The notes under the pieces were generated by a model. It searched no databases. It had not been told where the DNA came from and saw only the letters and a program-made list of their open reading frames with translations. Shown one piece after another: positions 1 through 60,666 of a DNA stretch of 64,000 bases (position 1 is the first letter of the stretch; the number at the start of each line of letters is the position of its first letter). The translations under genes and the position numbers were made by a program. This DNA comes from an uncultured Bacilli bacterium (GTDB lineage: Bacteria; Bacillota_I; Bacilli_A; RF39; UBA660). Where the stretch lies: assembly GCA_947627995.1 (NCBI GenBank), contig CANQYE010000002.1, positions 8,444 to 72,443 on the forward strand. The letters run 5' to 3'.

Positions 1-980
1 TAGTTTCAGATGGGGCATTAACCGTATTTGAAGCAAATATATAAGGTGAAGAAGACTCTCCTTTCATATTAAAGTATTCTTTAATAAAATTACTATTAGC
101 AAATCTATCTTCTCCAACTGTAGACATATAATTAATTGAATTTAAGTTTATTTTACTTTCATCCGCATCTTCAAATAATCCAAGTGCAAGCCCTGCAAAA
201 TAATCTGCTGAACTTTTTTCCCAGAATGGATCATTTTTATTTCCTTGATCATATAAAATATTTGCTGCTACGTCTTCCAATAACTCAACTGCTTTATCAA
301 CATTACCTTCTTTATATAACTTATAAGGTAAAATTAAAGGATTCCAAGCGTTTCCTTTTTCTGGTTCACGAAAATTTAAAACAACGATTTTATATCCTTT
401 TTCCTTTAAACTATTAGCTGCTCCTTTATATAATTCTGCTTTTGGATCGGTAATAATCATTGATTCTCCATGTTTTCCTAGTAAATTAACCATTGGTTTT
501 ACTATAGTTTCAGATTTACCAGAACCAGTCGAACCAATAACTAAATTATGATATTCTCCATTATCAACATAAATATTAGTTCCATCGTTTATTAAAGGAA
601 TACCTGCAGCTGTTGTATTCTCAGATAACGGGCTAACAAGTTCTATATCTTTATCTTCTGTTATTTCTTTCTTTGTAGCCCATCTACTATATCCTTTTTC
701 ATCTTTTTCACCAAAAGATAAACCTATTCCTTTACCTTTTTCTTTATCAAAAATATAAGATGATACACTTGTAAAAATTACTATTAATGCCATTGTAAAA
801 AACGTCATTGTTGCAGCAAAATATTTTCTACCAAAAGCTGGAAAAGGATTTATACCATAAAATTCGCCATCAGAAGAAAATTTAGCAAAATTTAAAACAC
901 CTATTGCACATAAATACAACAAAAAAATACAAAAAATAATAAACATTATAAAATCTTTTTTTGATACCTTAAATTTCATG
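1..980 (-). CDS. Type IV secretion coupling protein (VirD4/TraG/PcfC family), N-terminal part; C-terminus lies beyond the window start
   Basis: Translated by hand from the reverse strand. ATG at 980 with GGAGG RBS at 982-992. N-terminal TM helices, then Walker A 'VIGSTGSGKSETIVKPMV' and 'ITDPKAELY', diagnostic of the TraG/VirD4 family. Absent from the ORF track because it is truncated. Confidence 0.75.
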
Positions 981-1846: not shown

Positions 1847-3793
1847 TTAAGTACTACTTATATCTTCAATCCTATAGCAGAGAGCTTTTTTTATACCAGT
1901 ATATCGATCACTAAATTTAGTATAATTCGTTGCTGGATCCCACATATATATTTCTTTATCTGTTGTTCGATAATTATCAATCGCAACCCAGTGTTGATTA
2001 ACTTTATCCCCTCTTACACTTGCAACAATATAACATCCTTCATTTATCATCTCTTTAATACGCTTAGCATCCAATAGCACACCGAATTGTTCACTACGGC
2101 TAAGACTTTCATTATAAATAAAATTTGGTGCTACATATTTTGCATAGCTATAATCTTCTAATACTCCACCTTCTCCAAAAGAGCCTTTTTTTCTCATCAA
2201 CGCTATAGCTGTTTTAGGTGTCAAATCTCCCTCTAACTCGCTGCTCAGTTGCGCTTTACTATTTGCAATTTGGATTGTAATCGAAGTTGCCAAACATCCT
2301 TGATTTCCTATTGTACATTTGCTACATGTTCCAACTTTATCATTTGCCCACTTAGAATCATCTTGTCGCCAATATTGAAAATCACCTAAATTTATAGTTT
2401 GATCATTTACAGCATGATCACAAGAAAATGTCCTAACAGTACTTGCATTATCGCCATAAACATTTTTTAATATTTCTGTATAATCTTTCCCATTATCAGC
2501 TAAATTAATGAATTGATTTTGTGTATCAGATTTAAACCCAACATGAGGTATATTATTGCTATTATCAAGCATTACTTTACCAACAACTTCCATTGCAATA
2601 TTTGTATAAGTGTCAATAACTTCTTGACTTAAAGCATTTTTCCAAATAGTAGCTCCAGAAGTGTTAGAATTTATTTCTGGTGAGTATAAAGAAACATCGC
2701 CTCTATTAAAACGATATATATCTTTTGTATAATCCCAATATACTTGGTCATTTTCACAAGCCCGCATTCGAATTATACCGTCGTTTTTATTTAATCCATA
2801 AAAACAATTACTACTATCACCTGGACACATACTTTCATTTCTTGTTAATGTAAAATTTCTAATAGCAATAAGCTGGGCCTTTAAAGCTTCTTCATCCACA
2901 GTACCAATCTCCGCTAAAGCAACACCTAGTATATATTTTTCTAAAGGTATTTGTTCTAAAACTTTATAATTATCTTTCGTTGCATCACAATTAACTAATT
3001 CTACTTGCAAATTGTCATAATCGTAGCCATTAATATTATAAGAACATGCTGCTCCGGCTACCCCTGAGCTTCCCGACGTATTATCTTCTGAAGTATTTGA
3101 AGCCTCTCCACCTAAAGCAGGAATTATTAAAATAAGAGCTACAACAAAACAAGCCACTCCTAAGATTAAAAATAAAGGATGTCTAATTATTTTTATAATA
3201 TAAGATTTAAATTTAATAACTTTATTAATTTGTTTTTTTACATTATGATTTTCCTTTGATTTATTGGATTTCTTAGTATCCGAATCTCCATTTTTATCAT
3301 TTATACTTTCATTTGAAGCGATTTTATTTGATAGACTATGATTACTATTGCTATTTTTAGAACTAGCATTTTTTTGACTTAAATATTCTTTTTTTTCTAA
3401 ATTATCAGTATTTGGTTTAATGACTGAACTTTTAGAATTTATTATTTTACTTTTTAAGTTATTGCTGGGTGACAATATATTTTTACTATTTTTAGCAGCT
3501 TTATCTGCTATTGGTTTTGGTACCCCAACTGATTGTAATAAAGTTGATGAGATTTTTTTTTCTGCATCATTAGTAGTACTGGCTTTATATTTGTCATCAT
3601 TTAGAGTATTAACTTTTTTAAAATTATTATCATTTCTAACCCCATTATGTGACGAATTATAAAGCTCATCTGCTTCTGGACTATAAAATTCATTTTCTAA
3701 ATTTTTATATTTATTTTCACTGCCAAAAGAAGACACATTATGTCCTCCTTCATTATTATTGGAACTATGTTTATATTTTTCTTCTTCTGGCAT
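1847..3793 (-). CDS. T4SS-associated cell-wall hydrolase (VirB1/PrgK/CwlT functional analog), membrane-anchored
   Basis: 648 aa. Low-complexity N-terminus, one TM helix (LFLILGVACFVVALILIIPAL), a large extracellular domain, and a C-terminal Cys..His papain-like/CHAP-like segment (EGCYIV...NQHWVAID). Directly downstream of VirB4, as in Gram-positive conjugation loci. Confidence 0.45.
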   Translation of the reverse strand: MPEEEKYKHSSNNNEGGHNVSSFGSENKYKNLENEFYSPEADELYNSSHNGVRNDNNFKKVNTLNDDKYKASTTNDAEKKISSTLLQSVGVPKPIADKAAKNSKNILSPSNNLKSKIINSKSSVIKPNTDNLEKKEYLSQKNASSKNSNSNHSLSNKIASNESINDKNGDSDTKKSNKSKENHNVKKQINKVIKFKSYIIKIIRHPLFLILGVACFVVALILIIPALGGEASNTSEDNTSGSSGVAGAACSYNINGYDYDNLQVELVNCDATKDNYKVLEQIPLEKYILGVALAEIGTVDEEALKAQLIAIRNFTLTRNESMCPGDSSNCFYGLNKNDGIIRMRACENDQVYWDYTKDIYRFNRGDVSLYSPEINSNTSGATIWKNALSQEVIDTYTNIAMEVVGKVMLDNSNNIPHVGFKSDTQNQFINLADNGKDYTEILKNVYGDNASTVRTFSCDHAVNDQTINLGDFQYWRQDDSKWANDKVGTCSKCTIGNQGCLATSITIQIANSKAQLSSELEGDLTPKTAIALMRKKGSFGEGGVLEDYSYAKYVAPNFIYNESLSRSEQFGVLLDAKRIKEMINEGCYIVASVRGDKVNQHWVAIDNYRTTDKEIYMWDPATNYTKFSDRYTGIKKALCYRIEDISST

Positions 3794-3812
3794 ACATCAT
3801 CACCTATAATTT

Positions 3813-5597
3813 CTAAAATCCACCACCAGATCCAAAAGAATCTAATTCTTCTTGAGTTGCAATTACATTGATGCGCATACGTCTACTTCCACAGACAAAT
3901 AAGGCTTCTCCTTGATTAAAGTATTTAATATTTTCTTGTTCATTCTCATTTAAATCAATTAATCTCGCTAAATCGTCTATAGCTTGTTTACGCAAGCCCA
4001 TTACTAAGTAATAAGAAGCATTATCAAATATTGCTTTTCCATGTGTAATAATATTTGGAGCAGCAAAGTCAGTTGGTTGTTGAGTTATTATAATTGTTCC
4101 TGTATTGTATTTACGACTACGTCTTTGAATTTGTGCTAAAAATTCTGCACCTAATTCATTTCTACTGCTAAGTAAAACATGAGCTTCATCAACACACATT
4201 ATTGTATTAACATCTTTATCCAAACATAAACCCCAAGCATATTTCAAAATATTAAAAAATAATGCATTTCTAATTGATTCATCAGAATTCATAAGTTCTT
4301 TTATATTAAAAACAATAAAATCACTATTAAACTTAATTGTAGTATGGCCATTGAAATAGTATCTTAATTCTTTAATAAGAGGTCGAACTTTAAGTTCCAA
4401 TCTCTCCATTACATCTTTCTCTTGAGAATGTTCAGGCATAGATAACAATCTACCTTTAATAGTTGCATACACATCATCAAAAGTTGGATAATCTTCTGAT
4501 TTAAACTTTCTAAAGTCAGTATCAAAATCAATTCTATATCTTTTATATGTATCTTGAACAACCTCACTAAATAATGTTAAAACATCATCTTCAATACTTG
4601 GGGAATAATATTTCATAAAAGCTTTTAATTGTTGAATTGTTCTTGTTAAAACAGTATAGCCTAATCCTTGAGCCATTTCTTCTTCATCCGCATCTACAAC
4701 CACTTCTAAAGGATTTATCATTCCAAAGTCTCCACCTTTACCAAGGTCTATTGAATCTCCTCCAAGTATTCTTGTCATTTCCTTTAATTCATCCTCAGGA
4801 TCAATGGCTACAATTTTATATCCATTGCGAATATGACTACGAAGTAATAATTTAGCTACCGTAGATTTACCACTACCAGAAGTTCCTAATATTATCATGT
4901 TAGCATTATTTCTATTATGCTCTTTTTTAATTTGATATAAAAATTGATTGAATAATATTACCCCACCAGAAAAATCTTGACCAAGCAATGTAGATAAGCC
5001 CGGATCTTTGATGCTATCAAAAACAAAAGGATACATTGCAGCTAAAGTAACTGAAGGAATAGGTGTTCCAATACGTTCTTCGATATCTTGCTTTGGAAAA
5101 ATAGGAATAATAGATTTTAAGACTTTTTCTTGTTCAAACATTAAAGAGGTTGCACGTATTCCCATTGCATCAAGATAGCTTCTAACTTGCATTTTCTTTA
5201 AATCAAGTTCTTCTTTGGAATCAGCAGTAATCATTAAGTGCATTTGAAAATCAAATATTCGAGCTTGAGTAGAAGCTAACATTTGAACAAATTGTTCTAA
5301 TGATTCGTAATCTTGACGTATTCTTTCTTGAATTGTTATATCTCTTTCATTTTGGTACTTTTGCTTTAAATCAGCAATTTCTTTATTAATCATTCTTGAT
5401 AAAGATGAAAATGCAATAGGTATATGTTTAATAACCATTTTAACACCAGATATACTAGTGACATTAGATAAATAACCATGACTAATATATTTTGGATAGT
5501 TAATAACTGAAAGTATAGTAGCATGTTTATCACTTATTATAAAATCACTTGTTTTAAATTCTATGCCCTTAGGAGCAATTTCACTTTTTAATTTCAT
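3813..5597 (-). CDS. VirB4/TrbE/PrgJ-family conjugal transfer ATPase (C-terminal ATPase part)
   Basis: 594 aa. Walker A 'ILGTSGSGKST', Walker B 'IMCVDEAHVLL' and an FtsK/VirB4-like DUF87 architecture. The start overlaps the stop of the upstream ORF as ATGA. Confidence 0.7.
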   Translation of the reverse strand: MKLKSEIAPKGIEFKTSDFIISDKHATILSVINYPKYISHGYLSNVTSISGVKMVIKHIPIAFSSLSRMINKEIADLKQKYQNERDITIQERIRQDYESLEQFVQMLASTQARIFDFQMHLMITADSKEELDLKKMQVRSYLDAMGIRATSLMFEQEKVLKSIIPIFPKQDIEERIGTPIPSVTLAAMYPFVFDSIKDPGLSTLLGQDFSGGVILFNQFLYQIKKEHNRNNANMIILGTSGSGKSTVAKLLLRSHIRNGYKIVAIDPEDELKEMTRILGGDSIDLGKGGDFGMINPLEVVVDADEEEMAQGLGYTVLTRTIQQLKAFMKYYSPSIEDDVLTLFSEVVQDTYKRYRIDFDTDFRKFKSEDYPTFDDVYATIKGRLLSMPEHSQEKDVMERLELKVRPLIKELRYYFNGHTTIKFNSDFIVFNIKELMNSDESIRNALFFNILKYAWGLCLDKDVNTIMCVDEAHVLLSSRNELGAEFLAQIQRRSRKYNTGTIIITQQPTDFAAPNIITHGKAIFDNASYYLVMGLRKQAIDDLARLIDLNENEQENIKYFNQGEALFVCGSRRMRINVIATQEELDSFGSGGGF

Positions 5598-22273: not shown

Positions 22274-23170
22274 TCAATCCTTATCTAATTCAATATTTAA
22301 AATTTGTAAAATTCTTTCTAAATCTTTATCTGAATCAAATGGAATATCAATTTTTTTATTGCTAATCTTTACCTTTGTTCCAATTTTTTCTCTTAAAATT
22401 TTTTCGTAAATAGCATATTTTAGACTAGGTAACTCTTTTCTTTTTAATTTTACTCTTTTTGAAATATCTTCGCCACTTATTAATTTTTCAATATCTCTAA
22501 CAGATAAATGTTCTTTAATAACTTTACCTAAAATTTCTTCTTGTGTTTCATAACTTTCTATTTTGCTAATGGCACGAGCATGACTCATAGATATTTCGTT
22601 TTTTAAAATACTTTCTTGTACTTTATTGGATAAATTTAATAAGCCAAGCATATTAGTAATATAACTACGACTTTTGCCAAATTTTGTCGCTAACTCTTCT
22701 TGAGTAATACCATTTGTTTTAATTATAATATCATATGCTCGCGCTTCTTCTATAGCATTCAAATTTTCTCTTTGAATATTTTCAATTAAAGCAATTTCCA
22801 TCATTTGCTCATCATCAAAATCTCTTATGATTGCAGGAATTTTAGTAAAACCAGCAAGTTTAGCTGCCTTTGTTCTTCTCTCTCCAGCGACAAGTTCATA
22901 ACCTTTAATACTTTTTTTAACAATAATAGGTTCAATTATGCCGTGTTCTTTGATTGATAAAGAAAGTTCTTTTAATTTTTCTTCATCAAATGTTTTTCTT
23001 GGTTGGTATGGATTACTTCTAATTTCATTTAAAGGTATTTTTATAATATCTTGTTCCGTTGCATTTTTGACAATATTTTTTTCAAATTCATTAAAGTCTA
23101 AACGCTCATTAGTAAATAATTGTTCTAATCCTTTACCTAATGCTTTTCTTTTAGTTTCCACTTCTTTCAA
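22274..23170 (-). CDS. spo0J: Chromosome partitioning protein ParB/Spo0J
   Basis: 298 aa 'NPYQPRK...LVAGERR...IENIQRENL', with an HTH 'GKSRSYITNMLGLLNL'. Downstream of soj. Confidence 0.85.
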   Translation of the reverse strand: MKEVETKRKALGKGLEQLFTNERLDFNEFEKNIVKNATEQDIIKIPLNEIRSNPYQPRKTFDEEKLKELSLSIKEHGIIEPIIVKKSIKGYELVAGERRTKAAKLAGFTKIPAIIRDFDDEQMMEIALIENIQRENLNAIEEARAYDIIIKTNGITQEELATKFGKSRSYITNMLGLLNLSNKVQESILKNEISMSHARAISKIESYETQEEILGKVIKEHLSVRDIEKLISGEDISKRVKLKRKELPSLKYAIYEKILREKIGTKVKISNKKIDIPFDSDKDLERILQILNIELDKD

Positions 23171-23936
23171 TCACTTCCTTTGCTAAATTAAAGTAAGCTT
23201 CTGTAGCTTTACTTTTTGGATCATATTCACATATTGGTTTTCCATGGCTTGGAGCTTCTACTAGTCTTACGAGTCTTGGAATTATTGTATTAAAAACTTT
23301 ATCTTTAAAATATTTACGTACTTCTTCAACAACTTCTATTCCTAAATTAGTTCTTGCATCAAGCATTGTTAATAATACGCCACCTATCTTTAAATTAGGA
23401 TTTAATTCAGATTGAATCATTATAACTGAATTTAATAATTGTGTAATTCCCTCTAAAGCAAAAAATTCACATTGAACAGGAATAATAATGGAATCACTAG
23501 CAACCAGAGCATTATTAGTCAAAATACCTAATGTTGGCGGACAATCAATAATTATATAATCATAAAAATCTTTTATTCTTGAAAGTATATTTTTCAATTC
23601 TTCATATTGATTAAAATCATCATCAGTATAAAATTTTTTAATTAATTCAACGTCCAATCCGGCTAAAGATATTGTTGCAGGAATAACATCTAAATTTTTA
23701 AATTCCGTTTGAATAATAGCCTGTTCAATTTGACATTTTTCAGTTAAAACTTGATATATGTCATGTGGCATATCGCCTTTATTTAATCCAACACCAATAG
23801 AAGTATTACCTTGTGGATCTAAATCAATTAATAAAGTTTTCTTGTTCAATCTTCCTAAAGATGAAGCTAAATTTATACTTGTTGTCGTCTTGCCAACTCC
23901 ACCTTTTTGATTAACAAGAGAAATTATAGTTGCCAT
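23151..23936 (-). CDS. soj: ParA/Soj chromosome partitioning ATPase
   Basis: 261 aa with a deviant Walker A 'NQKGGVGKTTT'. Confidence 0.9.
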   Translation of the reverse strand: MATIISLVNQKGGVGKTTTSINLASSLGRLNKKTLLIDLDPQGNTSIGVGLNKGDMPHDIYQVLTEKCQIEQAIIQTEFKNLDVIPATISLAGLDVELIKKFYTDDDFNQYEELKNILSRIKDFYDYIIIDCPPTLGILTNNALVASDSIIIPVQCEFFALEGITQLLNSVIMIQSELNPNLKIGGVLLTMLDARTNLGIEVVEEVRKYFKDKVFNTIIPRLVRLVEAPSHGKPICEYDPKSKATEAYFNLAKEVIERSGN

Positions 23937-39239: not shown

Positions 39240-40010
39240 CTAAAAATTTTTTTCTTTTATTCCACTTTCCATTTCTATTTTACATTTCTTATTTAATATA
39301 TCAACGCTTTTTACTTTGCCTTTTTCATTATCAAGTAAAATTTCATCTCCAACATTTGGTAATCCTTTGCGACACTCAGTATATTCATTATCTTCATAAG
39401 CTAAACAACACAATAATCTGCCACAATTCCCATTAATTTTATTTGGATTTAAAGAAATATTTTGATTTTTTGCCATCCCCATAGAAACAGAATCAAGATG
39501 ATTAAGAAAATTATTGCAACATAACTTCATACCACAAATGCCTATTCCACCTATTTCTCGAGCTTTATCTCTTACACCTATTTGTCTTAATTCAATCCTT
39601 GTTTTATATATAAATGCTAATTTCTTTGCAAGATTTCTAAAATCAATTCGTTCATCAGCTAAAAAATTAAATAATAATTGTTTTCTATCAAATGTATAAT
39701 TTGCATCAATTATATTCATATCTAAATCTAGTTCTTCAGCAACTTCTCTCGCTTTATTTAAAGCTTTTTTTGCTTCTTTTAAATTATCCATATATATATC
39801 ATAATCTTCAGTAGTGGCTTTACGTAGCACAGGCTTTAAAGTGGTTATTTCAATACTTTCATCATTAACTACAGAAACTATTTTACCAAATTGAATCCCT
39901 TTTTCTGTTTCAACAATAACATTATCTTTAAGAGCTACTTCTATATTATTACTATTAAAGTTATATATTTTACCACCATTATTAAATACTACACCATAAA
40001 TTTTATCCAT
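39240..40010 (-). CDS. yaaT: PSP1-domain stage 0 sporulation protein YaaT/RicT
   Basis: 256 aa, conserved PSP1 C-terminal region '...RIELRQIGVRDKAREIGGIGICGMKLCCNNFL'. Follows holB, as in B. subtilis. Confidence 0.75.
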   Translation of the reverse strand: MDKIYGVVFNNGGKIYNFNSNNIEVALKDNVIVETEKGIQFGKIVSVVNDESIEITTLKPVLRKATTEDYDIYMDNLKEAKKALNKAREVAEELDLDMNIIDANYTFDRKQLLFNFLADERIDFRNLAKKLAFIYKTRIELRQIGVRDKAREIGGIGICGMKLCCNNFLNHLDSVSMGMAKNQNISLNPNKINGNCGRLLCCLAYEDNEYTECRKGLPNVGDEILLDNEKGKVKSVDILNKKCKIEMESGIKEKNF

Positions 40011-40864: not shown

Positions 40865-41059
40865 TTATAAGAAAAAAGAAATCACAAATAAAGATAAGAG
40901 TCCTGGAGCACCTAATAAACTTATAATTGTCAAAGTTGGAATATTAATAGGTATAAATACATTCAAAGAATTCATTATCAAATTTATTCCATATAACAAA
41001 ACAAATGCAAAACTAATCTTTTTAATAACATTTATTATAAATTTTAACATTTTGTCCAC
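40865..41059 (-). CDS. bofA: Pro-sigmaK processing inhibitor BofA
   Basis: 64 aa, two TM helices, '...VFIPINIPTLTIISLLGAPGLLSLFVI' matching the BofA C-terminal motif. Position after recR, as in B. subtilis. Confidence 0.55.
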   Translation of the reverse strand: MDKMLKFIINVIKKISFAFVLLYGINLIMNSLNVFIPINIPTLTIISLLGAPGLLSLFVISFFL

Positions 41060-42000: not shown

Positions 42001-43641
42001 CTATTTTATAACAATTTTTTCATTTTTAAATATATCCAAAACGGTATTTTCAATAGCCGTTTTTTCTTTGTTTATTTTAATTTCTTCTAACATTTTATAT
42101 TCCACTTTTTTCTTTTTGTTATTAATATATTCGTTTTTTATTTTTTTCCATTCTAAATCAGTTACAGCGACAAATTTATAATTTACTTTATTTTTATTAT
42201 TAAAATAAGTTTCTATTTTATCAACGTTTTTATTAAATAAAATACATTGACTCTCATCATCCATTTTTATAATCGCATATTCGTTTGATGCAGCAACAAT
42301 CTCAGTATCAATTAATAACGATATCAAATCTTTCTTGTTTTCATTAATTTCAAATAGAAATTCTGCCCATATTTTTTTTAATTTTTGTAATATTTCTTTT
42401 GAAGCTTTACAAAAACAATTATTAATTCTTATTGAAATTATTTCCCGGGAAATAATTTCTATATCTTTTTTTTCTATACTATCGGTTTTAAAATCATTTT
42501 CTTCATCTAATTCAGTTTTTAGTTCTTCATCAGCTCTTTTTTCAGTGTTTGCTGGCGTTTTATTACTTTCAACATCTACTTTAATTACATCATCTTTTTC
42601 AATATTAGCGCTTTCATCTGTTATTTTTATAAAATCTGCTAATATAATCATAATTATTAAATATGGATTTGAAGTGTTTTTCAAATCATTTAAACCTTTG
42701 ACAAGAGAATCTATTAATGCTTTTAATTTTTCAAACATATTTAAGTCAAATTTTGTAAATTTATAATATATGGCCATATCAACTAGCTTTTTTATCAATT
42801 TTTCGACTGTTAATTTCGCATCAATACCTTTATTTTTTAATGAATCTAGAATTTCATTTATTTGTTTTAAATTATTATTAATCAATGCCTCTGTTAAATT
42901 ATCAATAGTGATATTTGAAACATTTCCAACAATATTATTAATATCATCTAAAGTTATAATATCAGTACCATTATACACCTGATCTAAAATACTAAGTGCA
43001 TCTCTCATTCCACCATCACATATAATTGAAATTTCTTTTAAAGCATCATTCTCAATTTTAATGTTTTCTTTATCACAAATTTGTTTCAAATAATTTTCTA
43101 TAGTCTCAGATTTAATTCTTTTAAAATCAAACCTTTGACACCTAGACAATATAGTTAATGGTACCTTTTGGATATCTGTAGTTGCAAGTATAAATATTAC
43201 ATGTTGTGGAGGCTCTTCTAAAGTTTTTAATAATGCGTTAAAAGCTTCTGTTGAAAGCATATGAACTTCATCGATAATATATATTTTATATTTGGAATTT
43301 GAAGGGGCTAGTTTAACATTATTACGTAATTCTCTTATTTCATCAACACCATTATTAGAAGCCGCATCGATTTCTATTATATCTTGACTTTCATTAAAAG
43401 TTTTACAATGTATACAATTTTCACATGGCATACCATCATTAATGTTTTCACAATTAATAGTTTTAGCAAATACTTTTGCCGTACTTGTTTTCCCGGTACC
43501 GCGTGGTCCAGTAAAAATATAAGCATGAGAAATTTTACCACTTTTTATTGAATTTTTTAAAGTAGTAACCAGATATTCTTGACCAATAATATTATCAAAA
43601 TTGTCTGGCCTATATTTTCTATATAAAACTTTATAATTCAT
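42001..43641 (-). CDS. dnaX: DNA polymerase III subunit gamma/tau
   Basis: 546 aa. AAA+ 'GPRGTGKTSTAKVFAKTINC', zinc module CxxC-CxxC, sensor 'SRCQRF'. Confidence 0.9.
   Translation of the reverse strand: MNYKVLYRKYRPDNFDNIIGQEYLVTTLKNSIKSGKISHAYIFTGPRGTGKTSTAKVFAKTINCENINDGMPCENCIHCKTFNESQDIIEIDAASNNGVDEIRELRNNVKLAPSNSKYKIYIIDEVHMLSTEAFNALLKTLEEPPQHVIFILATTDIQKVPLTILSRCQRFDFKRIKSETIENYLKQICDKENIKIENDALKEISIICDGGMRDALSILDQVYNGTDIITLDDINNIVGNVSNITIDNLTEALINNNLKQINEILDSLKNKGIDAKLTVEKLIKKLVDMAIYYKFTKFDLNMFEKLKALIDSLVKGLNDLKNTSNPYLIIMIILADFIKITDESANIEKDDVIKVDVESNKTPANTEKRADEELKTELDEENDFKTDSIEKKDIEIISREIISIRINNCFCKASKEILQKLKKIWAEFLFEINENKKDLISLLIDTEIVAASNEYAIIKMDDESQCILFNKNVDKIETYFNNKNKVNYKFVAVTDLEWKKIKNEYINNKKKKVEYKMLEEIKINKEKTAIENTVLDIFKNEKIVIK
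42440..42453. promoter_or_regulatory. Noc-binding site (NBS) ATTTCCCGGGAAAT inside dnaX coding sequence
   Basis: Exact 14-bp NBS consensus. The flanks extend the palindrome to 23 bp, identical to the copy at 35467-35489. Encodes 'IISREII' in dnaX. Confidence 0.7.
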
Positions 43642-43682
43642 ATTAAAATCTCCCCATTTAATTATATCATAGTTATAATATT

Positions 43683-44099
43683 TTATCTTATATTTTTAAA
43701 AAAATTTTTCATTAATTTTTTTAATTTTATTTTGATATTATTTGAACACTTTTCTGAATATTTAGTTTTACTATATGTATTACTATCTTCATTTTTTGTT
43801 AACATATAGTAAACATTTCTTATCCTAGATTCATTAATAATTTTTGCACACATTTCGCATGGTTTTAAAGTAACATATAAATCACAATTGTTTAATCTCC
43901 AGTCTTTTAATTTTTTGTTAGCCTTTAATATGCATAATACTTCTGCATGGGATAAAACAAGATTATTTTTTATTCTTTTATTATGAGCTTTTGATATTAT
44001 ACGATCATTTTTAACAATAACTGCTCCAACTGGAACTTCATTTAATCTATAACCTTTTTTTGCTTCTTTATAAGCCATCTCAAAATAATACTCACTCAT
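43683..44099 (-). CDS. tadA: tRNA-specific adenosine deaminase TadA
   Basis: CDA fold 'HAEVLCIL...PCEMCAKII'. Start moved to the Met at 44099 (RBS AGGAA). The longer track ORF would overlap the predicted ffs RNA. Confidence 0.8.
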   Translation of the reverse strand: MSEYYFEMAYKEAKKGYRLNEVPVGAVIVKNDRIISKAHNKRIKNNLVLSHAEVLCILKANKKLKDWRLNNCDLYVTLKPCEMCAKIINESRIRNVYYMLTKNEDSNTYSKTKYSEKCSNNIKIKLKKLMKNFFKNIR

Positions 44100-44119
44100 T
44101 ATTTTAATTCCTTTCAAAT

Positions 44120-44196
44120 AAAAAGTGCACACAAATAGTGATTGTTATGGCTGCTGTATTCCTACTCTGACCAGGTTTCAATATATTTGTTGCACA
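44120..44196 (-). ncRNA. ffs: Probable signal recognition particle RNA (small 4.5S-type ffs), unannotated
   Basis: The minus strand reads GUGCAACAAAUAUAUUGAAACCUGGUCAGAGUAGGAAUACAGCAGCCAUAACAAUCACUAUUUGUGUGCAC. It contains ACCUGGUCAG...GGAA tetraloop...CAGCAGCCA, matching the conserved domain IV (E. coli ACCAGGUCAGGUCCGGAAGGAAGCAGCCA). A 12-bp closing helix and a U-run follow. A sigma-A promoter sits at the correct distance. Confidence 0.55.
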
Positions 44197-44201
44197 ATTA
44201 A

Positions 44202-44229
44202 ATTATAACATACTAAAATTATTTTTCAA
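44202..44229 (-). promoter_or_regulatory. Sigma-A promoter of the ffs-like RNA (TTGAAA-N16-TGTTATAAT)
   Basis: Reverse strand has the -35 TTGAAA (44224-44229) and an extended -10 TGTTATAAT (44202-44210). The predicted TSS coincides with the 5' end of the RNA closing helix. Confidence 0.5.
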
Positions 44230-44234
44230 GTTAA

Positions 44235-44250
44235 TGTTTCACGTGAAACA
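44235..44250. promoter_or_regulatory. parS: parS site (TGTTTCACGTGAAACA), perfect consensus
   Basis: Exact 16-bp palindrome identical to the Firmicute parS consensus. Directly abuts the -35 of the ffs promoter. Confidence 0.75.
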
Positions 44251-44291
44251 TATATGTTTTATTTAAAATAACTGATTTTTAAAATAAATTA

Positions 44292-44321
44292 AAAACAATG
44301 TTTCACGTGAAACATTGTTTT
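44292..44321 (-). terminator. gyrA intrinsic terminator (30-bp perfect palindrome containing parS)
   Basis: Perfect inverted repeat followed on the minus strand by UUAAUUUAUUUU. Confidence 0.5.
44299..44314. promoter_or_regulatory. parS: parS site (TGTTTCACGTGAAACA), perfect consensus, embedded in gyrA terminator
   Basis: Exact 16-bp parS. The extended 30-bp palindrome AAAACAATGTTTCACGTGAAACATTGTTTT spans the gyrA stop codon. Confidence 0.75.
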
Positions 44322-46758
44322 AGTCTTCTTGTTCATTATCAACAATTTCATTTTTATCTACAATACTTATAGTAGATACTTTTTGATTATCTTTTAAATT
44401 GATTAATTTAACACCTTGTGTAACTCTTCCAAGTTGTGAAATTTGATCTAGAGGTGTCCTAATAAGCATTCCAGAATTAGTTATAATCATTACATCTTTG
44501 TTTTCTGTAACTATTTTAAACGAAGCAATATTTCCATTTTTTTCAGTAATACTTAAAGCTTTTATTCCTTTACTGCCTCTTTTTGTTTGACGATATTCGC
44601 TGATTAATGTTTTCTTTCCATATCCTTTTTCTGTAACTATTAAAATGTTTTGATTATCGTTAGCTATTTCAGCTCCTATACAATTATTTCCGTCTAAATT
44701 AATTCCTTTAACACCGCTAGCTGTTCTTCCCATTTCTCTTATTTCGTTTTCATCAAATTTTACCAATCTTCCAGAAGAAGATCCTAATAAAACTAAATCG
44801 TGGCCTGTAGTTTTTCTTACTGCAATTAACTCATCTGTTTCTTTTAATTTAATAGCAATTTTGCCCGTAGATCTGATATTATCAAAATCTTTTATATTAG
44901 TTTTTTTAATTAATCCTTTTTTCGTAACAAAAACTAAATATTTATATAATTCATTTTTGTCTAATCTTATGATTGAATTTACTGACTCATCTTTGGAGAT
45001 TTGTAATAAGTTAATAATAGGTAATCCTTTAGATTGACGGCTAAATTCGGGTATTTCATAGCCTTTTAATCTATATACTTTTCCCTTGTTGGTGAAAAAC
45101 AAAATATAGTCATGTGTTGATAAATTTATTAATTCTTCGACAAAATCTTCTTCATTTGTTGACATTCCCTTTACACCAACTCCGCCTCTGTGTTGTGTTT
45201 TATACGTGTCTGACGTCATTCTTTTTATATAACCTTTATTTGTTAAAGTTATTATAATATTTTCTTCTGGAATTAAAGATTCATCTTCTATAAAATCAAT
45301 AGCTGTCATATCTATTTTTGTTCTTCTTTCATCACCATATTTATTTTTTATTTCAGTTAATTCATCTTTAATAATCTCTAAAACTTTCTTTTCGCTAGCT
45401 AGTATTTCTTTTAAATTTTTAATTAATGCAATTAAATCATCATATTCTTTTTCTATTTTGTTTCTTTCTAAACCAGTTAATCTACGTAATTTTAGTTCTA
45501 GAATTGCATCTGATTGTATCTCTGTTAATCCAAAACGTTTAATTAATTCTTCCTTAGCTATTTGGTCGCTCTCAGCTTCACGAATAAGCTTTATTACTGC
45601 ATCTAAATTATCTAGTGCGATTTTATAGCCTTCTAATATATGTACCCTTTTTTCAGCCTTATCTAAATCAAATTGTGTCCTTCTAATTATTACTTCTTTT
45701 TGATGATCAATATATTTTGATATAATTGACTTTAAACCAAGAGTTTTAGGAAATTTTCCATCTAACATTAAAAAATTAATTCCAAAATTTGTTTGAAAAG
45801 AAGTATGTCTATACAAATTATTTAATACAACTTGAGGATTAGCATCTCTTTTTAATGTGATAGTAATTTTAACTCCATCTTTTAAATCAGTATGATAATC
45901 AGAAATGCCATCAATAATTTTATTGTGTACTAAATCTGCAACTTTATTTTTTAATTCTAAAGTGCTAACACCATATGGTACTTCATCAATAATTATATAA
46001 TTTTTACCATTTTTTTCAATAATTTCAGCTTTACTACGTATAGTTAAAGTTCCTTTACCAGTTTCATAAGCTTTTTTTATTCCTGAATTACCTAAAATTA
46101 TTCCACCTGTAGGAAAATCTGGCCCTTTAATAAATTTCATTAAACCATCTGTGTCAATATCGGGATTATCAATATAAGCAATGCAACCATCAATAACTTC
46201 AGATAAATTATGTGGAGGAATATTTGTCGCCATACCAACCGCAATTCCCATAGTTCCATTAACTAAAATGTTAGGAAATCTTGAAGGTAAAACTTCCGGT
46301 TCTTCAGTTGATTCATCATAATTAGGTTTAAAATCAACAGTGTTTTTATTTATATCTCTTAATAATTCCATAGAAATTTTAGAAAGTTTTGCTTCAGTAT
46401 AACGATATGCTGCTGCACCATAACCTTCAATATTTCCGAAATTTCCATGACCATCAACTAACATATATCTATATTGAAAATCTTGAGCCATACGAACCAT
46501 TGCTTCATAAATTGAAGAATCACCATGTGGATGATATTTACCCATAACATCTCCAACTATTGTAGCGGATTTTCTATGTTGTTTATCAGGAGTTAATCCA
46601 TTTTCTAACATATCATACAAGATTCTACGATGAACTGGTTTTAAACCATCTCTTAAATCTGGTAATGCTCTAGACACAATAACACTCATTGAATAGTCAA
46701 GAAAGGAATTTTCTACTTCTTTTACAATATTATTTTCTTCTAATCTATCTGTATTCAT
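44320..46758 (-). CDS. gyrA: DNA gyrase subunit A
   Basis: 812 aa. '[21 protein letters not shown]', the active-site Tyr region, a C-terminal beta-pinwheel. Adjacent to gyrB near oriC. Confidence 0.9.
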
Positions 46759-49880: not shown

Positions 49881-50336
49881 TCATTTATTTTTTCGTTGTC
49901 TTAATACGGATTCTAATCTTGTTGCTCTTAATATTTGATTATCTAAAATACCATAAGAAATATTAAATTTTATTTTTTGATTGTTTTTAAATTCAACGAC
50001 CATTTTTTCATCTTCTTTATAATAATTTATAATATTTTTTAAACTAATCCAATTACATTTTACTAAACGATTTGAATGTGTAGGAAAAAATATTATTTCT
50101 TTTGTTTCTTCTATTATTATTGGAACCTTATGTGTTACTCCTATGAGATTATATGTTCCTTTTTGTCTTCCTTTTAAACTACTACCAAAATATTGGCAAC
50201 TATCTTCCATAATTTTATTAGCAGATTTATTTATTTCAAAAGTATTATTTAATTCATAAACCATGCTATTTTTTTCATCGATTGGAATTATTGCTAATGT
50301 TTCTTCATTTATTTCATAATCAACCAAAAAACCCAT
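49881..50336 (-). CDS. comK: Competence transcription factor ComK homolog
   Basis: 151 aa. 'CQYFGSSLKGRQKGTYNLIGVTHKVPIII...IFFPTHS...CNWISL...ISYGILDNQILRATRLES' aligns with B. subtilis ComK ('CRFFGSSYAGRKAGTYEVTKISHKPPIMV...LFPTLS...CGWISH...ISYNSFENQVYRTAWLRT'). Confidence 0.75.
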   Translation of the reverse strand: MGFLVDYEINEETLAIIPIDEKNSMVYELNNTFEINKSANKIMEDSCQYFGSSLKGRQKGTYNLIGVTHKVPIIIEETKEIIFFPTHSNRLVKCNWISLKNIINYYKEDEKMVVEFKNNQKIKFNISYGILDNQILRATRLESVLRQRKNK

Positions 50337-51646: not shown

Positions 51647-52993
51647 CTATCCTAAATTGTTTTTAATATTTTGAATATTTTCTTTTAATTGTTTATTATT
51701 TATTAAATCTTGTTTAATTTTTTCATAAGCATATATAACAGTTGAATGATCTCTACCTCCAAACTCTAATCCAATCTTAATTAATGATTCTTCAGTTAAT
51801 AGCCGACATAAATACATAGCTATTTGACGTGGATAATTAATATTATTTGTCCTTTTCTTACTTTTTAAATCATTTATAGTAATATTATAATAATCTGCAA
51901 CACATTTTTGGATTTTGGTAATATTATTTTGTTGATACATATTAGTAGAAGTATAATCTCTTAAAGCTTCATTTGCAAATTCTAAATTTATATTTGAAAT
52001 TCCCATAATAGCAGCATAAGCATATAATCTAGTAATAGCACCCTCTAAGTGGCGAACATCATTTTGACAAGAATTTGCAATAAAATCTATAACATCTTGA
52101 TCAATATTTTTGGCTACTTCGTGTCCTTTTATTTTATTTTTGATAATTTTAGTTTTAAGTTCAACATCTGGAGGTAAGATATCAACACTTAGACCCCAAG
52201 CAAATCTTGTACGTAATCGATCTTCTAATAATTTTAAATCATCAGGGGATCTATCAGAACTTATAATAATTTGTCTATCACTGGAATGTAAAATATTAAA
52301 AGTATTAAAAAATTCTTGTTGAGTTTTTTCTGCACCCGCTAAAAATTGAATATCATCAATAATTAAAACATCTACATTTCTATATTTATTCTTAAAAAAA
52401 TTAACATAATCACTATTATTACCAACAACATTTCTGATACCAATAAAGTCAGTAGTAAATTCATCACTGGTAACATATAAAACATTTTTATTACTATTTT
52501 TATTAATATAATTTCCAATAGCATGCATTAAATGAGTTTTACCAACACCACTTTTACCATATATAAATAATGGATTATATATTTTACCAGGATTTTCTGC
52601 TACAGCTAACGCAGCAGTCTGAGCAAAACGATTAGAAGTTCCTACTAAAAAATTTTCGAAAGTATATTTAGGATTTAAATTAGTATTAAACTTTTTTATA
52701 TCAGTATCATTTTCAATAATATTATTTTGAATATTATCATTTTTTAATACAAATTCTATATCATAATTATTACCTGTTAAATTAACAAGTGTTTCTTCGA
52801 TTAAATCATAATAATTTTTAGCAAGTAAATTTTTTTGTAATACCATCGGAACTTCTATAGTAGCTTTATTATTTTCGAGATTTATAAGTGATGTATCTTT
52901 AAACCAAGTATTAAAAGAAATAGGATTAACTTTGTTATTAATAATATTTAAAAAATTATTCCAAAGATCACTTAAGTTCAAAACCATCACCAC
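51647..52993 (-). CDS. dnaA: Chromosomal replication initiator DnaA
   Basis: 448 aa. AAA+ 'GKSGVGKTHL', Walker B 'DDIQFL', C-terminal HTH DNA-binding domain. Confidence 0.95.
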   Translation of the reverse strand: MVMVLNLSDLWNNFLNIINNKVNPISFNTWFKDTSLINLENNKATIEVPMVLQKNLLAKNYYDLIEETLVNLTGNNYDIEFVLKNDNIQNNIIENDTDIKKFNTNLNPKYTFENFLVGTSNRFAQTAALAVAENPGKIYNPLFIYGKSGVGKTHLMHAIGNYINKNSNKNVLYVTSDEFTTDFIGIRNVVGNNSDYVNFFKNKYRNVDVLIIDDIQFLAGAEKTQQEFFNTFNILHSSDRQIIISSDRSPDDLKLLEDRLRTRFAWGLSVDILPPDVELKTKIIKNKIKGHEVAKNIDQDVIDFIANSCQNDVRHLEGAITRLYAYAAIMGISNINLEFANEALRDYTSTNMYQQNNITKIQKCVADYYNITINDLKSKKRTNNINYPRQIAMYLCRLLTEESLIKIGLEFGGRDHSTVIYAYEKIKQDLINNKQLKENIQNIKNNLG

Positions 52994-53305
52994 CTTATTT
53001 TCTAACTAATATAATTTTAACTTAATATTTTTTAAATTTAAAGTAAAAAATATTAGTGTTAGGATTTATTAACAAAAATTGTTAATAAATTTTTAAATTT
53101 AAATACTATAATAACTTAAATTTATCAAGTTATCAACATTTTCAACAAATTTAGTTAATTTAGTTTTCACAAATGTTAAAAAAAATATTAACAATTAACA
53201 AAAAATGTTAATATTATAAAACATATAAATTGATTAAAATCTATTTTCTTGACTTTTAATAACATATATAATATAATGAAAAAGCTTAACAAATGGAGGT
53301 GTATT
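52994..53305. promoter_or_regulatory. oriC: Probable oriC region: AT-rich dnaA-rpmH spacer with degenerate DnaA boxes
   Basis: TTATCAACA at 53130-53138 (one mismatch to TTATCCACA). Inverted pairs TTATTAACA/TGTTAATAA at 53067-53088 and ATATTAACA/TGTTAATAT at 53195-53214. Divergent rpmH and dnaA transcription. Confidence 0.55.
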
Positions 53306-53431
53306 ATGAGTAAAAGAACATATCAACCAAATAAACTAAAGAAAAAAAAGAAGCATGGATTTTTTGCTAGAAAAAATTCTAAAATTTTAAAATTAAGAAT
53401 GAAAAAAGGAAGAAAAAATTTATCTAAATAA
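53306..53431 (+). CDS. rpmH: 50S ribosomal protein L34
   Basis: Start chosen at 'MSKRTYQPNKLKKKKKHGFFARKNSK', the L34 family. RBS GGAGG at 53294. Confidence 0.85.
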   Translation: MSKRTYQPNKLKKKKKHGFFARKNSKILKLRMKKGRKNLSK

Positions 53432-53455
53432 ACCACAATTTTGTGGTTTTTATTC
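53430..53455 (+). terminator. Intrinsic terminator/attenuator after rpmH
   Basis: AAACCACAATTTTGTGGTTT followed by TTATT. Confidence 0.6.
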
Positions 53456-53468
53456 TAGAGGTGCCAAA

Positions 53469-53798
53469 ATGAAAAAAAAATATGTTGTTAAAGAAAAATT
53501 AGAATTTAATAAAATAATAAAAAATGGAAAAAAAATTCAAAATGAAATATTTATAATTTTTTGTCAAGATAACAAGAATAATTTTTCTCGTTTTGGTATA
53601 GCAGTTTCAAAAAAACTTGGAAATGCAGTAATTAGAAATAAAATAAAAAGAAGGATACGTAATATTATAGATAATAACAAATTTTTATTTAAAAAAAACA
53701 AAAATTATATTATAATGATTAAAAGAAGTGTTGCATCTTTTGATTATAATATATTAAATGAAAAATTAATAGAATTAATAAAAAAGGAGAAAAAATGA
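53469..53798 (+). CDS. rnpA: Ribonuclease P protein component
   Basis: 109 aa, basic, 'FGIAVSKKLGNAVIRNKIKRRIRNI', the RnpA motif. Confidence 0.85.
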   Translation: MKKKYVVKEKLEFNKIIKNGKKIQNEIFIIFCQDNKNNFSRFGIAVSKKLGNAVIRNKIKRRIRNIIDNNKFLFKKNKNYIIMIKRSVASFDYNILNEKLIELIKKEKK

Positions 53799-54751
53799 AA
53801 AATAAAAGAAAAATCTTAATAATAGTCTTACTTTTCATGATTTTTTTTACAACAGGTTGTACAAAATACATGCGAAAAGAAGATAAAAGTGGAAAAAAGA
53901 GTGTAGTAATAAATGAAAAAACAGGGCAAAGTTTAACAGCTAATATTTTATGTAAGCCTACTGAAAAAGAAGTAACAAAATTATATGAAAAAAATGAAAA
54001 ATTGATGATGGTTAAATTAAAAAATTTACCAACATGTAACAAATTTAAACCTAGTGATTTAAAGTATACAAGTTTATGGGAATCGTTCTTTATTAAGCCT
54101 TTAGCATTTATCATATTAAAAATTGGAAATTTAGTAAAAAGCTACGGTATAGCAGTAATGATTGTTGGTTTATTAATAAGAGTACTTTTAATGCCACTTT
54201 CTAAGAAAGCAATTTTACAATCTGAGAATATGAAAAAAGCACAGCCAGAACTGAATCGAATTGAAAAAAAATATAAAAATAAAACAGATAATGAGTCCAT
54301 GATGGCAAAAAGTCAAGAAATGATGATAGTATATAAAAAATATGGAATGAATCCTATCTCTGGTTGTTTAGTTTCTTTTTTGCAACTTCCATTGTTCTTT
54401 GCATTTTTAGAAACAATTAATAGAATTCCAGCTGTTTTTGAAGAAACATTATTAGGATTACAACTAGGAACTACTCCATTAAAAGGAATTTCTGGACATA
54501 ATTATCTATATTTGATATTAATTATATTAATAATTTTAACAACATATTTTTCTTTTAAAACATCAATGGGTACTGTAGCAGATGATAAAGATAATCCAGC
54601 AATTAAACAAACACAATTTATGACTAAATTTATGCTTGTATTTATCGCTATAGCTTCATTAAGTTTACCAGCTGCTATAGCATTATATTGGATTGTGACT
54701 AATGCATTTGCAGTCATTCAAACTAAAATATTAAAAAGAAAGAAGAAGTAA
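53795..54751 (+). CDS. yidC: YidC/Oxa1/SpoIIIJ membrane insertase (lipoprotein)
   Basis: 318 aa. Lipobox 'FFTTGC', five TM helices, conserved 'AILQSENMKKAQPELNRI...YKKYGMNP' region. Confidence 0.85.
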   Translation: MKNKRKILIIVLLFMIFFTTGCTKYMRKEDKSGKKSVVINEKTGQSLTANILCKPTEKEVTKLYEKNEKLMMVKLKNLPTCNKFKPSDLKYTSLWESFFIKPLAFIILKIGNLVKSYGIAVMIVGLLIRVLLMPLSKKAILQSENMKKAQPELNRIEKKYKNKTDNESMMAKSQEMMIVYKKYGMNPISGCLVSFLQLPLFFAFLETINRIPAVFEETLLGLQLGTTPLKGISGHNYLYLILIILIILTTYFSFKTSMGTVADDKDNPAIKQTQFMTKFMLVFIAIASLSLPAAIALYWIVTNAFAVIQTKILKRKKK

Positions 54752-59364: not shown

Positions 59365-60666
59365 ATGAATCTTGAAAGCGAAATTTATCAAGTAAATATT
59401 AATGATATAATTCCTAATCGTTTTCAACCACGATTAACATTTGATGAAGCTGCTTTAAATGAGTTAGCTTCTTCAATCAAAGAACATGGGATAATTCAAC
59501 CTTTAGTTTTAAGAAAACTTGGTGATAAATATGAAATAATTGCTGGCGAAAGACGATATAAAGCATCAATAATTGCCGGCTTAACTACAGTTCCAGCTAT
59601 TATATCAAATATGGATGATAATAAAAGTGCTGAAATAGCTATTGTAGAAAACGTTCAGAGAAAAGATTTAACTGCTATAGAAGAAGCGCGTTCTTATAAA
59701 AAATTATTAGATAAAGGCTACTTAACACAAGAACAACTTGCAGAAAAAATGGGAGTTTCTCAATCTTCTGTTGCAAATAAATTAAGACTTTTAAATCTTG
59801 ATGAAAAAGTGCAAGATGCCTTATTAAATGGGAAGATATCAGAGCGTCATGCTAGAAGCTTATTATCCTTAAAAGAAAAAGAAGAACAAGTAAAAATGCT
59901 TGATCGAATTCTTAATGAAAGATTAACTGTAAGACAACTTGATTCAGAAATAAAAAAACTTCTTCCTGATTCAGAAGAAGATTCTGAAGATATTCCAATT
60001 ATTGATCCTATTCCATCAATTGATGAAATAAAAAATAAAGCAGTGGATATTAATCCACAAGAAACAAAACCAAAATTATCATTGGAAGAATTATTAAAAC
60101 CTCAAACAACTGAAACCCAAGAAAAAGAACAAACTAACGAAAAACCATTGATTGAACCTTCAAAAAACAAATTTTTTAATTTTTTGGAAGATGAAGAAGT
60201 TAATATGAATGTTACAGAAGAAACTCCTTCTTTATCACCTTTTAATCAACCATTATCAATACCAAAAACAGAAAGTAATGATTCAGATGTAGAAGTTTTA
60301 GATATTAATCCAACTAACATAACATCTATAGAAGAAGCGCCTTCACCAACTGAAGATAATATTTTTGATATTCCAAATATATTTGATAATCCTTCTGCTT
60401 CTACAAAAGAAGAACCTGTTGAGCAATTATTTATTTCTCAAAGTCCTACTCCAACGAATAATAATATTTTTGATCCAATTTCTATTATTGATAAAGTAGC
60501 TCAACAAAAGGAAGAAGAAAAAAATCAAAAAACAATAGAATTAAAAGATGCAATAAATGATATTAGAAATTTAACTAGTAGTTTAGAACAAAAAGGTTTT
60601 GTGATAAATTTAGAAGAACTTGATTTGGATAAATCTTATCAAATAAATATTAAAATTGATAAATAA
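59365..60666 (+). CDS. noc: Nucleoid occlusion protein Noc-like ParB paralog with long Pro/acidic C-terminal extension
   Basis: 433 aa. 'IIPNRFQPR', 'IIAGERRYKA', 'IVENVQRKDL', HTH 'GVSQSSVANKLRLLNL' (Noc-type QSS-ANKLRLL), 'ISERHARSL'. Downstream of rsmG, as in B. subtilis. An extra ~230-aa tail carries repeated NIFD motifs. Confidence 0.7.
   Translation: MNLESEIYQVNINDIIPNRFQPRLTFDEAALNELASSIKEHGIIQPLVLRKLGDKYEIIAGERRYKASIIAGLTTVPAIISNMDDNKSAEIAIVENVQRKDLTAIEEARSYKKLLDKGYLTQEQLAEKMGVSQSSVANKLRLLNLDEKVQDALLNGKISERHARSLLSLKEKEEQVKMLDRILNERLTVRQLDSEIKKLLPDSEEDSEDIPIIDPIPSIDEIKNKAVDINPQETKPKLSLEELLKPQTTETQEKEQTNEKPLIEPSKNKFFNFLEDEEVNMNVTEETPSLSPFNQPLSIPKTESNDSDVEVLDINPTNITSIEEAPSPTEDNIFDIPNIFDNPSASTKEEPVEQLFISQSPTPTNNNIFDPISIIDKVAQQKEEEKNQKTIELKDAINDIRNLTSSLEQKGFVINLEELDLDKSYQINIKIDK

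Follow-up and report, generated by a model that had tools for sequence, protein, structure and literature searches.

The spacer between gyrA and tadA carries on its minus strand what is almost certainly the ffs gene of this organism, encoding the RNA component of the signal recognition particle (SRP) of bacteria in its small, 4.5S-type form. SRP RNA occurs universally as a housekeeping RNA and assists the delivery of membrane proteins. Within the 64 kb of genomic DNA analyzed here (the window), positions 44229–44116 of the minus strand form a complete small transcription unit made of a promoter, a 71-nt hairpin (GUGCAACAAAUAUAUUGAAACCUGGUCAGAGUAGGAAUACAGCAGCCAUAACAAUCACUAUUUGUGUGCAC) and a U-tract (Table 1). 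A sequence-only reading of the same DNA had pointed to an SRP RNA at this place, and the string that it described, AACCUGGUCAGAGUAGGAAUACAGCAGCCAUAAC, is found on the minus strand at the locus. The RNA belongs to an ordinary, already-known family that a standard covariance-model scan detects, and nothing in the finding challenges current knowledge. The gain is one of annotation, as the genome acquires an essential SRP RNA gene and the predicted start of tadA is corrected to ATG 44099. The locus also offers a clean example of a minimal SRP RNA, with a 71-nt hairpin of fixed length across a clade of uncultured gut Bacilli.

The check named in the sequence-only reading, a covariance-model search of the minus strand, came out in its favor. 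RF00169 (Bacteria_small_SRP) matched the locus across the full model (positions 1-97 of 97) with 55.3 bits, where the gathering score is 40 (E = 2.3e-9), and this was the sole gathering-level match when the whole 64-kb window was compared with all 4227 Rfam families. No tRNA or tmRNA was found in the 64-kb window, and no plus-strand ORF of at least 50 aa lies across the stretch of the gyrA-tadA spacer. The RF00169 alignment spans 44204-44109 on the minus strand and thus exceeds the hairpin by 9-11 nt per side. These extra nucleotides stay unpaired in the fold. The outer pairing proposed by the model (44204-44196 with 44119-44109) was rejected as a part of the RNA: it is AU-rich and absent from the minimum free energy (MFE) structure, it overlaps both the -10 box and the tadA ribosome-binding site, and the conserved geometry of the locus puts the transcription start at the helix. 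As the outer flanks of the Rfam alignment coincide with these two elements, we take the real SRP RNA to run from 44195 to about 44117.

Table 1. Features of the ffs-tadA locus, together with other genes and parS arrays mentioned in the text. L numbers denote loci from other genomes.
Feature	Positions	Strand	Sequence	Basis
-35 hexamer TTGAAA, ffs promoter	44224..44229	-	window	consensus scan
Extended -10 TGtTATAAT (hexamer 44207-44202)	44202..44210	-	window	consensus scan
Predicted SRP RNA (ffs, 4.5S type) hairpin, four helices	44125..44195	-	window	RF00169; MFE structure equal to RNAalifold consensus; covariation
5' motif GCAAC, hairpin base, pairs with GUGUGC	44189..44193	-	window	conservation; Rfam consensus capitals
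Domain IV (helix 8) core, expected Ffh M-domain binding site	44149..44176	-	window	conserved columns; RF00169 consensus
Domain IV, 5' loop ACC		-	window	
Domain IV, GGUCAG	44172-44167	-	window	
Domain IV, GGAA GNRA tetraloop	44162-44159	-	window	
Domain IV, AGCAGCC	44155-44149	-	window	
3' motif GUGUGC with bulged G (44130)	44127..44132	-	window	conservation; spacing
U-tract UUUUUAUUU, directly 3' of the GC-rich helix base	44116..44124	-	window	17-locus geometry
tadA ribosome-binding site GAAAGGA, 9 nt upstream of ATG 44099	44109..44115	-	window	read from sequence
TadA-like tRNA adenosine deaminase, 138 aa, ATG 44099	43683..44099	-	window	ENA gene calls; NCBIfam profile
BofA-family ORF, after recR	40865-41059	-	window	Pfam PF07441; gene calls on L081/L082
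ParB/Noc-family protein, 433 aa, after rsmG, noc position	59365-60666	+	window	
ParB/Noc-family protein, 298 aa	22274-23170	-	window	
parS array	2459-3382		L002	
parS array	2660-3353		L006	
parS array	65-591		L009	
parS array	19-408		L016	
parS array	2617-3258		L020	
parS array	3149-5206		L022	
parS array	3296-5146		L015	

The MFE structure of the RNA is one hairpin with helices of 12, 4, 4 and 3 bp (-16.8 kcal/mol). It is closed by the 12-bp terminal helix that had been proposed beforehand, which is present with one bulged G (5 + 7 bp). The folding energy of the single sequence is not exceptional (z = -1.48 for the 79-mer; z = -0.83 for the 96-mer covered by the Rfam alignment). It is uninformative for an RNA with a GC content of 32% and was not used as evidence, so that the significance of the match comes from the covariance model and from covariation.

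The structural hallmarks of a small SRP RNA are all found in the hairpin. Helix 8 is a GNRA-capped stem with the symmetric loop (…CAG(G/A) / AGCA…) and the asymmetric loop (5' ACC-N / 3' A), and the positions of this domain IV agree with the capitalized consensus of RF00169, whose score over the full model exceeds the gathering threshold. The extended hairpin is held by compensatory changes, and a distal helix 5 motif of the GCAAC/GUGUGC type, also conserved in the Rfam consensus, lies at the right distance from the tetraloop. The RNA does not qualify as a large SRP RNA (RF01854), a type defined by the Alu domain helices 2-4 and a length of about 260-270 nt, since the promoter and the U-tract leave just 71 nt plus a tail and the best-scoring member of the clan is RF00169.

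The locus is conserved among relatives. A search with the adjacent DnaX gave uncultured gut 'Bacilli' MAGs from rabbit, Brazilian and Hadza samples as the closest species-level genomes, with a DnaX identity of only 41-48%. In tblastn searches with the window proteins, the arrangement gyrB-gyrA-ffs-tadA-dnaX-ybaB-recR was seen throughout the clade, with GyrA proteins 67-75% identical; the gene order in the window is ffs-tadA-dnaX-ybaB-recR-bofA. Matches to RF00169 were obtained at 15 of 17 loci from uncultured Bacilli, located 450-710 bp upstream of dnaX on the same strand and scoring 49.9-60.2 bits. The two loci without a match were L004, which has only 162 nt upstream of dnaX, and the Anaeroplasma locus L032, in which no match was found over the 4 kb upstream. 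The arrangement recurs in an Erysipelotrichia MAG (L055), with a score of 65.8 bits, and the 55.3 bits of the window are mid-range among the orthologues (49.9-65.8 bits). Within the species, four contigs from the ENA assemblies ERZ27249283, ERZ27249530, ERZ27249519 and ERZ27249541 all carry the hairpin and U-tract without a single base change, and three of these contigs share the full gyrA-tadA spacer unchanged.

In Bacillaceae and Staphylococcus, a large SRP RNA (RF01854, 200-250 bits; 235-250 bits in the Bacillaceae loci) lies directly before dnaX. In a Priestia locus (Bacillaceae), tadA (2987-3487) is followed by an SRP RNA of 265 nt (3582-3846) and by dnaX (3995), that is, tadA-SRP RNA-dnaX as against ffs-tadA-dnaX in the window. 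A Bacillus subtilis-like neighborhood in a different order was just what the sequence-only reading had noticed, and the swap of ffs and tadA relative to Bacillaceae is a lineage trait.

Evidence for selection on the structure came from an alignment of 17 orthologous SRP RNA sequences. RNAalifold, given no hint, returned exactly the MFE structure of the window RNA. Compensatory double changes were found in 17 of the 23 pairs; 97.7% of the 391 pair cells were standard and 91 cells held double changes. The covariation score was 0.67 compared with 0.21 ± 0.02 for column shuffles, and none of 500 shuffles reached the observed value on any of five measures. When the 3' partners were slid by 1-3 columns, pairing fell to 32-47% and the score to 0.07-0.10. 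Meanwhile GGUCAG, the G and A of the tetraloop, AGCA-CC, the CAA of GCAAC and the UGUG of GUGUGC are invariant across the 17 sequences, and variation in the tetraloop stays within GNRA (GGAA/GAGA/GAAA). This combination of variable stems and invariant loops marks a functional SRP RNA and not a mere terminator. The proposed identity as an SRP RNA is borne out by the RF00169 match, by the conserved position in 16 related loci and by the strong covariation.

To place the RNA among known SRP RNAs, we compared it with E. coli 4.5S RNA, using a 114-nt sequence that was checked against 5,426 complete genomes. A full-length match was found in 5,425 of them, with at least 99% identity in 5,421 and once per genome; the records listed were 100% identical and annotated 'ffs: signal recognition particle sRNA small type'. 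Both RNAs are single hairpins with the same domain IV loops and the GGAA tetraloop, although the window hairpin measures 71 nt and the E. coli RNA 114 nt. The spacing of the motifs is the same in the two from GCAAC to GGUCAG (21 nt), from GGUCAG to GGAA (10 nt) and from GGAA to AGCAGCC (7 nt). From AGCAGCC to GUGUGC it is 23 nt in the window RNA and 21 nt in E. coli, and the distance from the distal motif to the tetraloop is 30 nt versus 28 nt. Only 2 nucleotides precede GCAAC in the window RNA, compared with 21 in E. coli, and the outer ~20 bp of the E. coli helix are missing. Judged from this alignment of motifs, the window RNA corresponds roughly to nucleotides 20-88 of E. coli 4.5S RNA, a functional core without the outer helix, and the minimal gene keeps exactly the stretch from the tetraloop to the distal motif.

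This small size is not new, since the small SRP RNAs of Mycoplasma (Mollicutes), of ~77-80 nt, are likewise minimal AT-rich hairpins with a helix 8/helix 5 core. The window lineage differs from the Mollicutes: it consists of uncultured low-GC Bacilli from the gut, and these have kept a gene for a PBP1A-type cell-wall enzyme. The scRNA of B. subtilis (scr; RF01854) shares the S-domain core, whereas the window RNA lacks the Alu domain and has 71 nt against about 265-271 nt. The two genes also share a neighborhood near oriC that includes tadA/yaaJ, dnaX, yaaK/ybaB, recR and bofA (PMC10454642), with ffs-tadA-dnaX in the window and tadA-scr-dnaX in B. subtilis, and the window locus comes directly after gyrA.

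Could this locus be a decaying or redundant extra copy, with the working SRP RNA gene elsewhere in the genome? The scan, including that for a second ffs copy, covered 64 kb of the genome, which leaves some room for such a reading, yet we consider it very unlikely. The locus lies where ffs is conserved throughout the clade, domain IV is intact and invariant at every position, the compensatory changes show ongoing selection on the structure, and the RF00169 score is in the middle of the range of its orthologues; E. coli genomes, moreover, have a single ffs each, with both the median and the maximum at 1 place per genome. A mere cis-acting terminator or attenuator hairpin in the tadA-dnaX leader, resembling SRP RNA by chance in AT-rich DNA, would suit the unremarkable folding energy and the hairpin and U-tract directly upstream of the tadA ribosome-binding site, but it can be dismissed with near certainty, given a full-length match at a chance E-value of 2e-9, loops with an invariant GGUCAG...GGAA...AGCAGCC where a mere terminator has no sequence constraint, a spacing of GGUCAG, GGAA and AGCAGCC identical to that of E. 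coli 4.5S RNA, and a homologous Bacillaceae locus that holds an undoubted 265-nt SRP RNA.

For the ffs RNA, homology suggests how the parts of the hairpin would work. The apical domain IV, with its 5' ACC loop, GGUCAG/AGCAGCC and GGAA tetraloop, would bind the M domain of Ffh, and the tetraloop would recruit the receptor FtsY. The GCAAC/GUGUGC pair at the base of the hairpin would form the distal site, where the Ffh-FtsY GTPase pair is expected to dock for GTP hydrolysis and cargo hand-over. We take the GUGUGC motif to be the counterpart of E. coli G81-C86, the distal site (G83, C86, C87). FtsY docks first at the tetraloop, and the distal part of the hairpin is the docking place of the Ffh-FtsY NG dimer for GTPase activation (PMC4737761, PMC5454536). 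Neither ffh nor ftsY was found among the 25 window ORFs scanned.

The hairpin has its own promoter. As the sequence-only reading had claimed for the reverse strand of this spacer, the sigma-A promoter is near-consensus (TTGAAA, a 16-nt spacer and TGtTATAAT; 11 of 12 positions match, with the TG element, at 44229-44202). It is the top promoter-like site within 43500-44800. As a class, such sites are no more frequent in this AT-rich interval than in shuffled sequence, with 10 found versus 10.5 expected. On the minus strand, the stop codon of gyrA (44320) is followed by a terminator-like palindrome, a second copy of the palindrome core, the promoter, 6 nt and the hairpin, and after the hairpin come the U-tract, GAAAGGA, 9 nt and ATG 44099.

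Both the promoter and the U-tract are kept in the relatives, in support of the earlier suggestion that the RNA has a promoter of its own and a U-tract. In 14 of 17 loci, 6 nt separate the -10 hexamer of the best -35/-10 pair from the first paired base, and a TTGnnn hexamer has an equivalent relative position in most of them. The hairpin is 71 nt long in 16 loci and 72 nt in one. The 9 nt past the helix hold 6-8 T in every one of the 17, columns T77-T81 of the alignment being (nearly) invariant, and a Shine-Dalgarno (SD) sequence and tadA start codon follow 17-31 nt past the helix in 14 of 17 loci.

Since the -10 hexamer ends 6 nt before the helix, the transcription start is predicted at G44195, the first base of the hairpin, which would leave no 5' leader to remove. 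In this the RNA would differ from E. coli 4.5S RNA, which RNase P releases from a longer precursor. The GC-rich base of the helix and the U-tract would jointly act as an intrinsic terminator and set the 3' end of the RNA. In the model that we favor, sigma-A RNA polymerase would start at or adjoining G44195, transcribe the 71-nt hairpin and terminate in the U-tract directly past its GC-rich base. The geometry of this unit, ~115 bp from promoter to terminator, predicts an RNA of ~75-80 nt with little or no end processing.

For tadA, the ORF as delimited mechanically begins at GTG 44132 and encodes 149 aa, and its start codon falls within the RNA, where it supplies the GUG of the GUGUGC motif. 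The sequence-only reading had remarked on this overlap and preferred an internal Met, a choice that agrees with the gene calls on four same-species ENA contigs (a 138-aa protein from ATG 44099), with the GAAAGGA ribosome-binding site and with the NCBIfam TadA profile, which aligns from residue 11 of the 149-aa ORF. The start of tadA is therefore placed at ATG 44099, outside the RNA and 26 nt from the end of the hairpin, with no overlap between the two genes. The profile score of 84.9 bits is below the equivalog cut-off of 150, for which reason the product is more carefully called a TadA-like deaminase encoded at the position of tadA.

The stretch from the U-tract to the ribosome-binding site of tadA leaves no room for a promoter, so that tadA-dnaX is probably transcribed at least in part by read-through of the ffs terminator, as far as the geometry indicates. 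One could go further and imagine a double duty for the SRP RNA hairpin, as a leaky terminator through which tadA-dnaX-ybaB-recR would be expressed mainly from the strong ffs promoter. This idea is tentative and we regard it as rather doubtful; if true, ffs would set the ratio of an abundant RNA to replication and tRNA-editing proteins made at a low level. For B. subtilis, separate promoters are reported for the downstream genes (PMC10454642).

The spacer also contains a palindrome, TGTTTCACGTGAAACA, present in exactly two copies in the 64 kb (44235-44250 and 44299-44314), whereas chance would predict 0.03. It agrees without mismatch with TGTTNCACGTGAAACA, the consensus of the chromosomal parS site bound by ParB/Spo0J (PMC7022226). 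Both sites sit in the 124-bp spacer between gyrA and ffs, ~8 kb from dnaA. The site at 44299-44314 is the core of the 30-nt terminator-like palindrome of gyrA (44292-44321). The other ends about 3-5 nt upstream of the -35 hexamer of ffs, and L001, L005 and L008 have a parS site that stops 3-4 nt short of theirs. The ffs unit would thus adjoin the chromosomal centromere of the clade, and in a reading as tentative as that of the leaky terminator, loading of ParB could influence the ffs promoter as well. A fixed spacing between parS and promoter was considered as a sign of regulation and rejected, the gap between the nearest upstream parS and the helix varying from 38 to 108 nt within the clade.

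Related loci carry 2-8 copies of parS in the gyrA-ffs spacer. In L015 and L022, 3-4 copies lie between ffs and tadA and more are found downstream, around dnaX. Besides the arrays listed in Table 1, parS arrays also lie beside ffs in L001, L008 and L021. Some fall within regular tandem repeats, with a unit of 167 bp in L006 (3.3 copies), of 44 bp in L022 (3.6 copies, 99% identity), of about 62 bp in L016 and of about 125 bp in L020. No parS was detected upstream of ffs in three loci, one of which, L007, has only 49 nt of upstream sequence, and the nearest parS in L055 is 973 nt away, inside a coding sequence. Linkage of a centromere-like parS array to ffs-tadA-dnaX seems to characterize the clade.

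The window encodes two ParB/Noc-family proteins (Table 1), both below the Noc cut-off of 315, with 285.6 and 247.7 bits. The protein of 433 aa is unusually long, and only its first ~200 residues match profiles. The gene for the protein of 298 aa is preceded by a 261-aa ORF (23151-23936) that may encode ParA/Soj.

In its wider context the locus lies close to the replication origin, which the window spans. The GC skew changes sign at ~52000-53800; dnaA (51647-52993, minus strand), dnaN, recF, gyrB and gyrA run leftwards, and yidC (53795, plus strand), jag, mnmE, mnmG, rsmG and the gene for the 433-aa ParB/Noc-family protein run rightwards. The gap of ~800 bp between dnaA and yidC, where rpmH and rnpA would be expected, is likely oriC. 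A 151-aa ORF between dnaN and recF (49881-50336, minus strand) had no NCBIfam match at E <= 1e-10; the B. subtilis gene in this position presumably encodes the small S4-like protein YaaA. Another ORF, of ~256 aa (39240-40010, minus strand), lies downstream of a holB-like gene.

In one relative, L002, the sequence CGAACAAATGTTTG (3383-3396) directly follows the proximal parS, upstream of the ffs promoter. It resembles the Firmicute LexA (Cheo) box, CGAACnnnnGTTCG, and among the relatives it was seen only there, with a possibly degenerate copy in L013. Finally, the BofA-family ORF after recR extends the match to the dnaX-yaaK-recR-yaaL-bofA cluster of B. subtilis; BofA is sporulation-associated in Bacillus, and its presence is unexpected for a genome of 25% GC.
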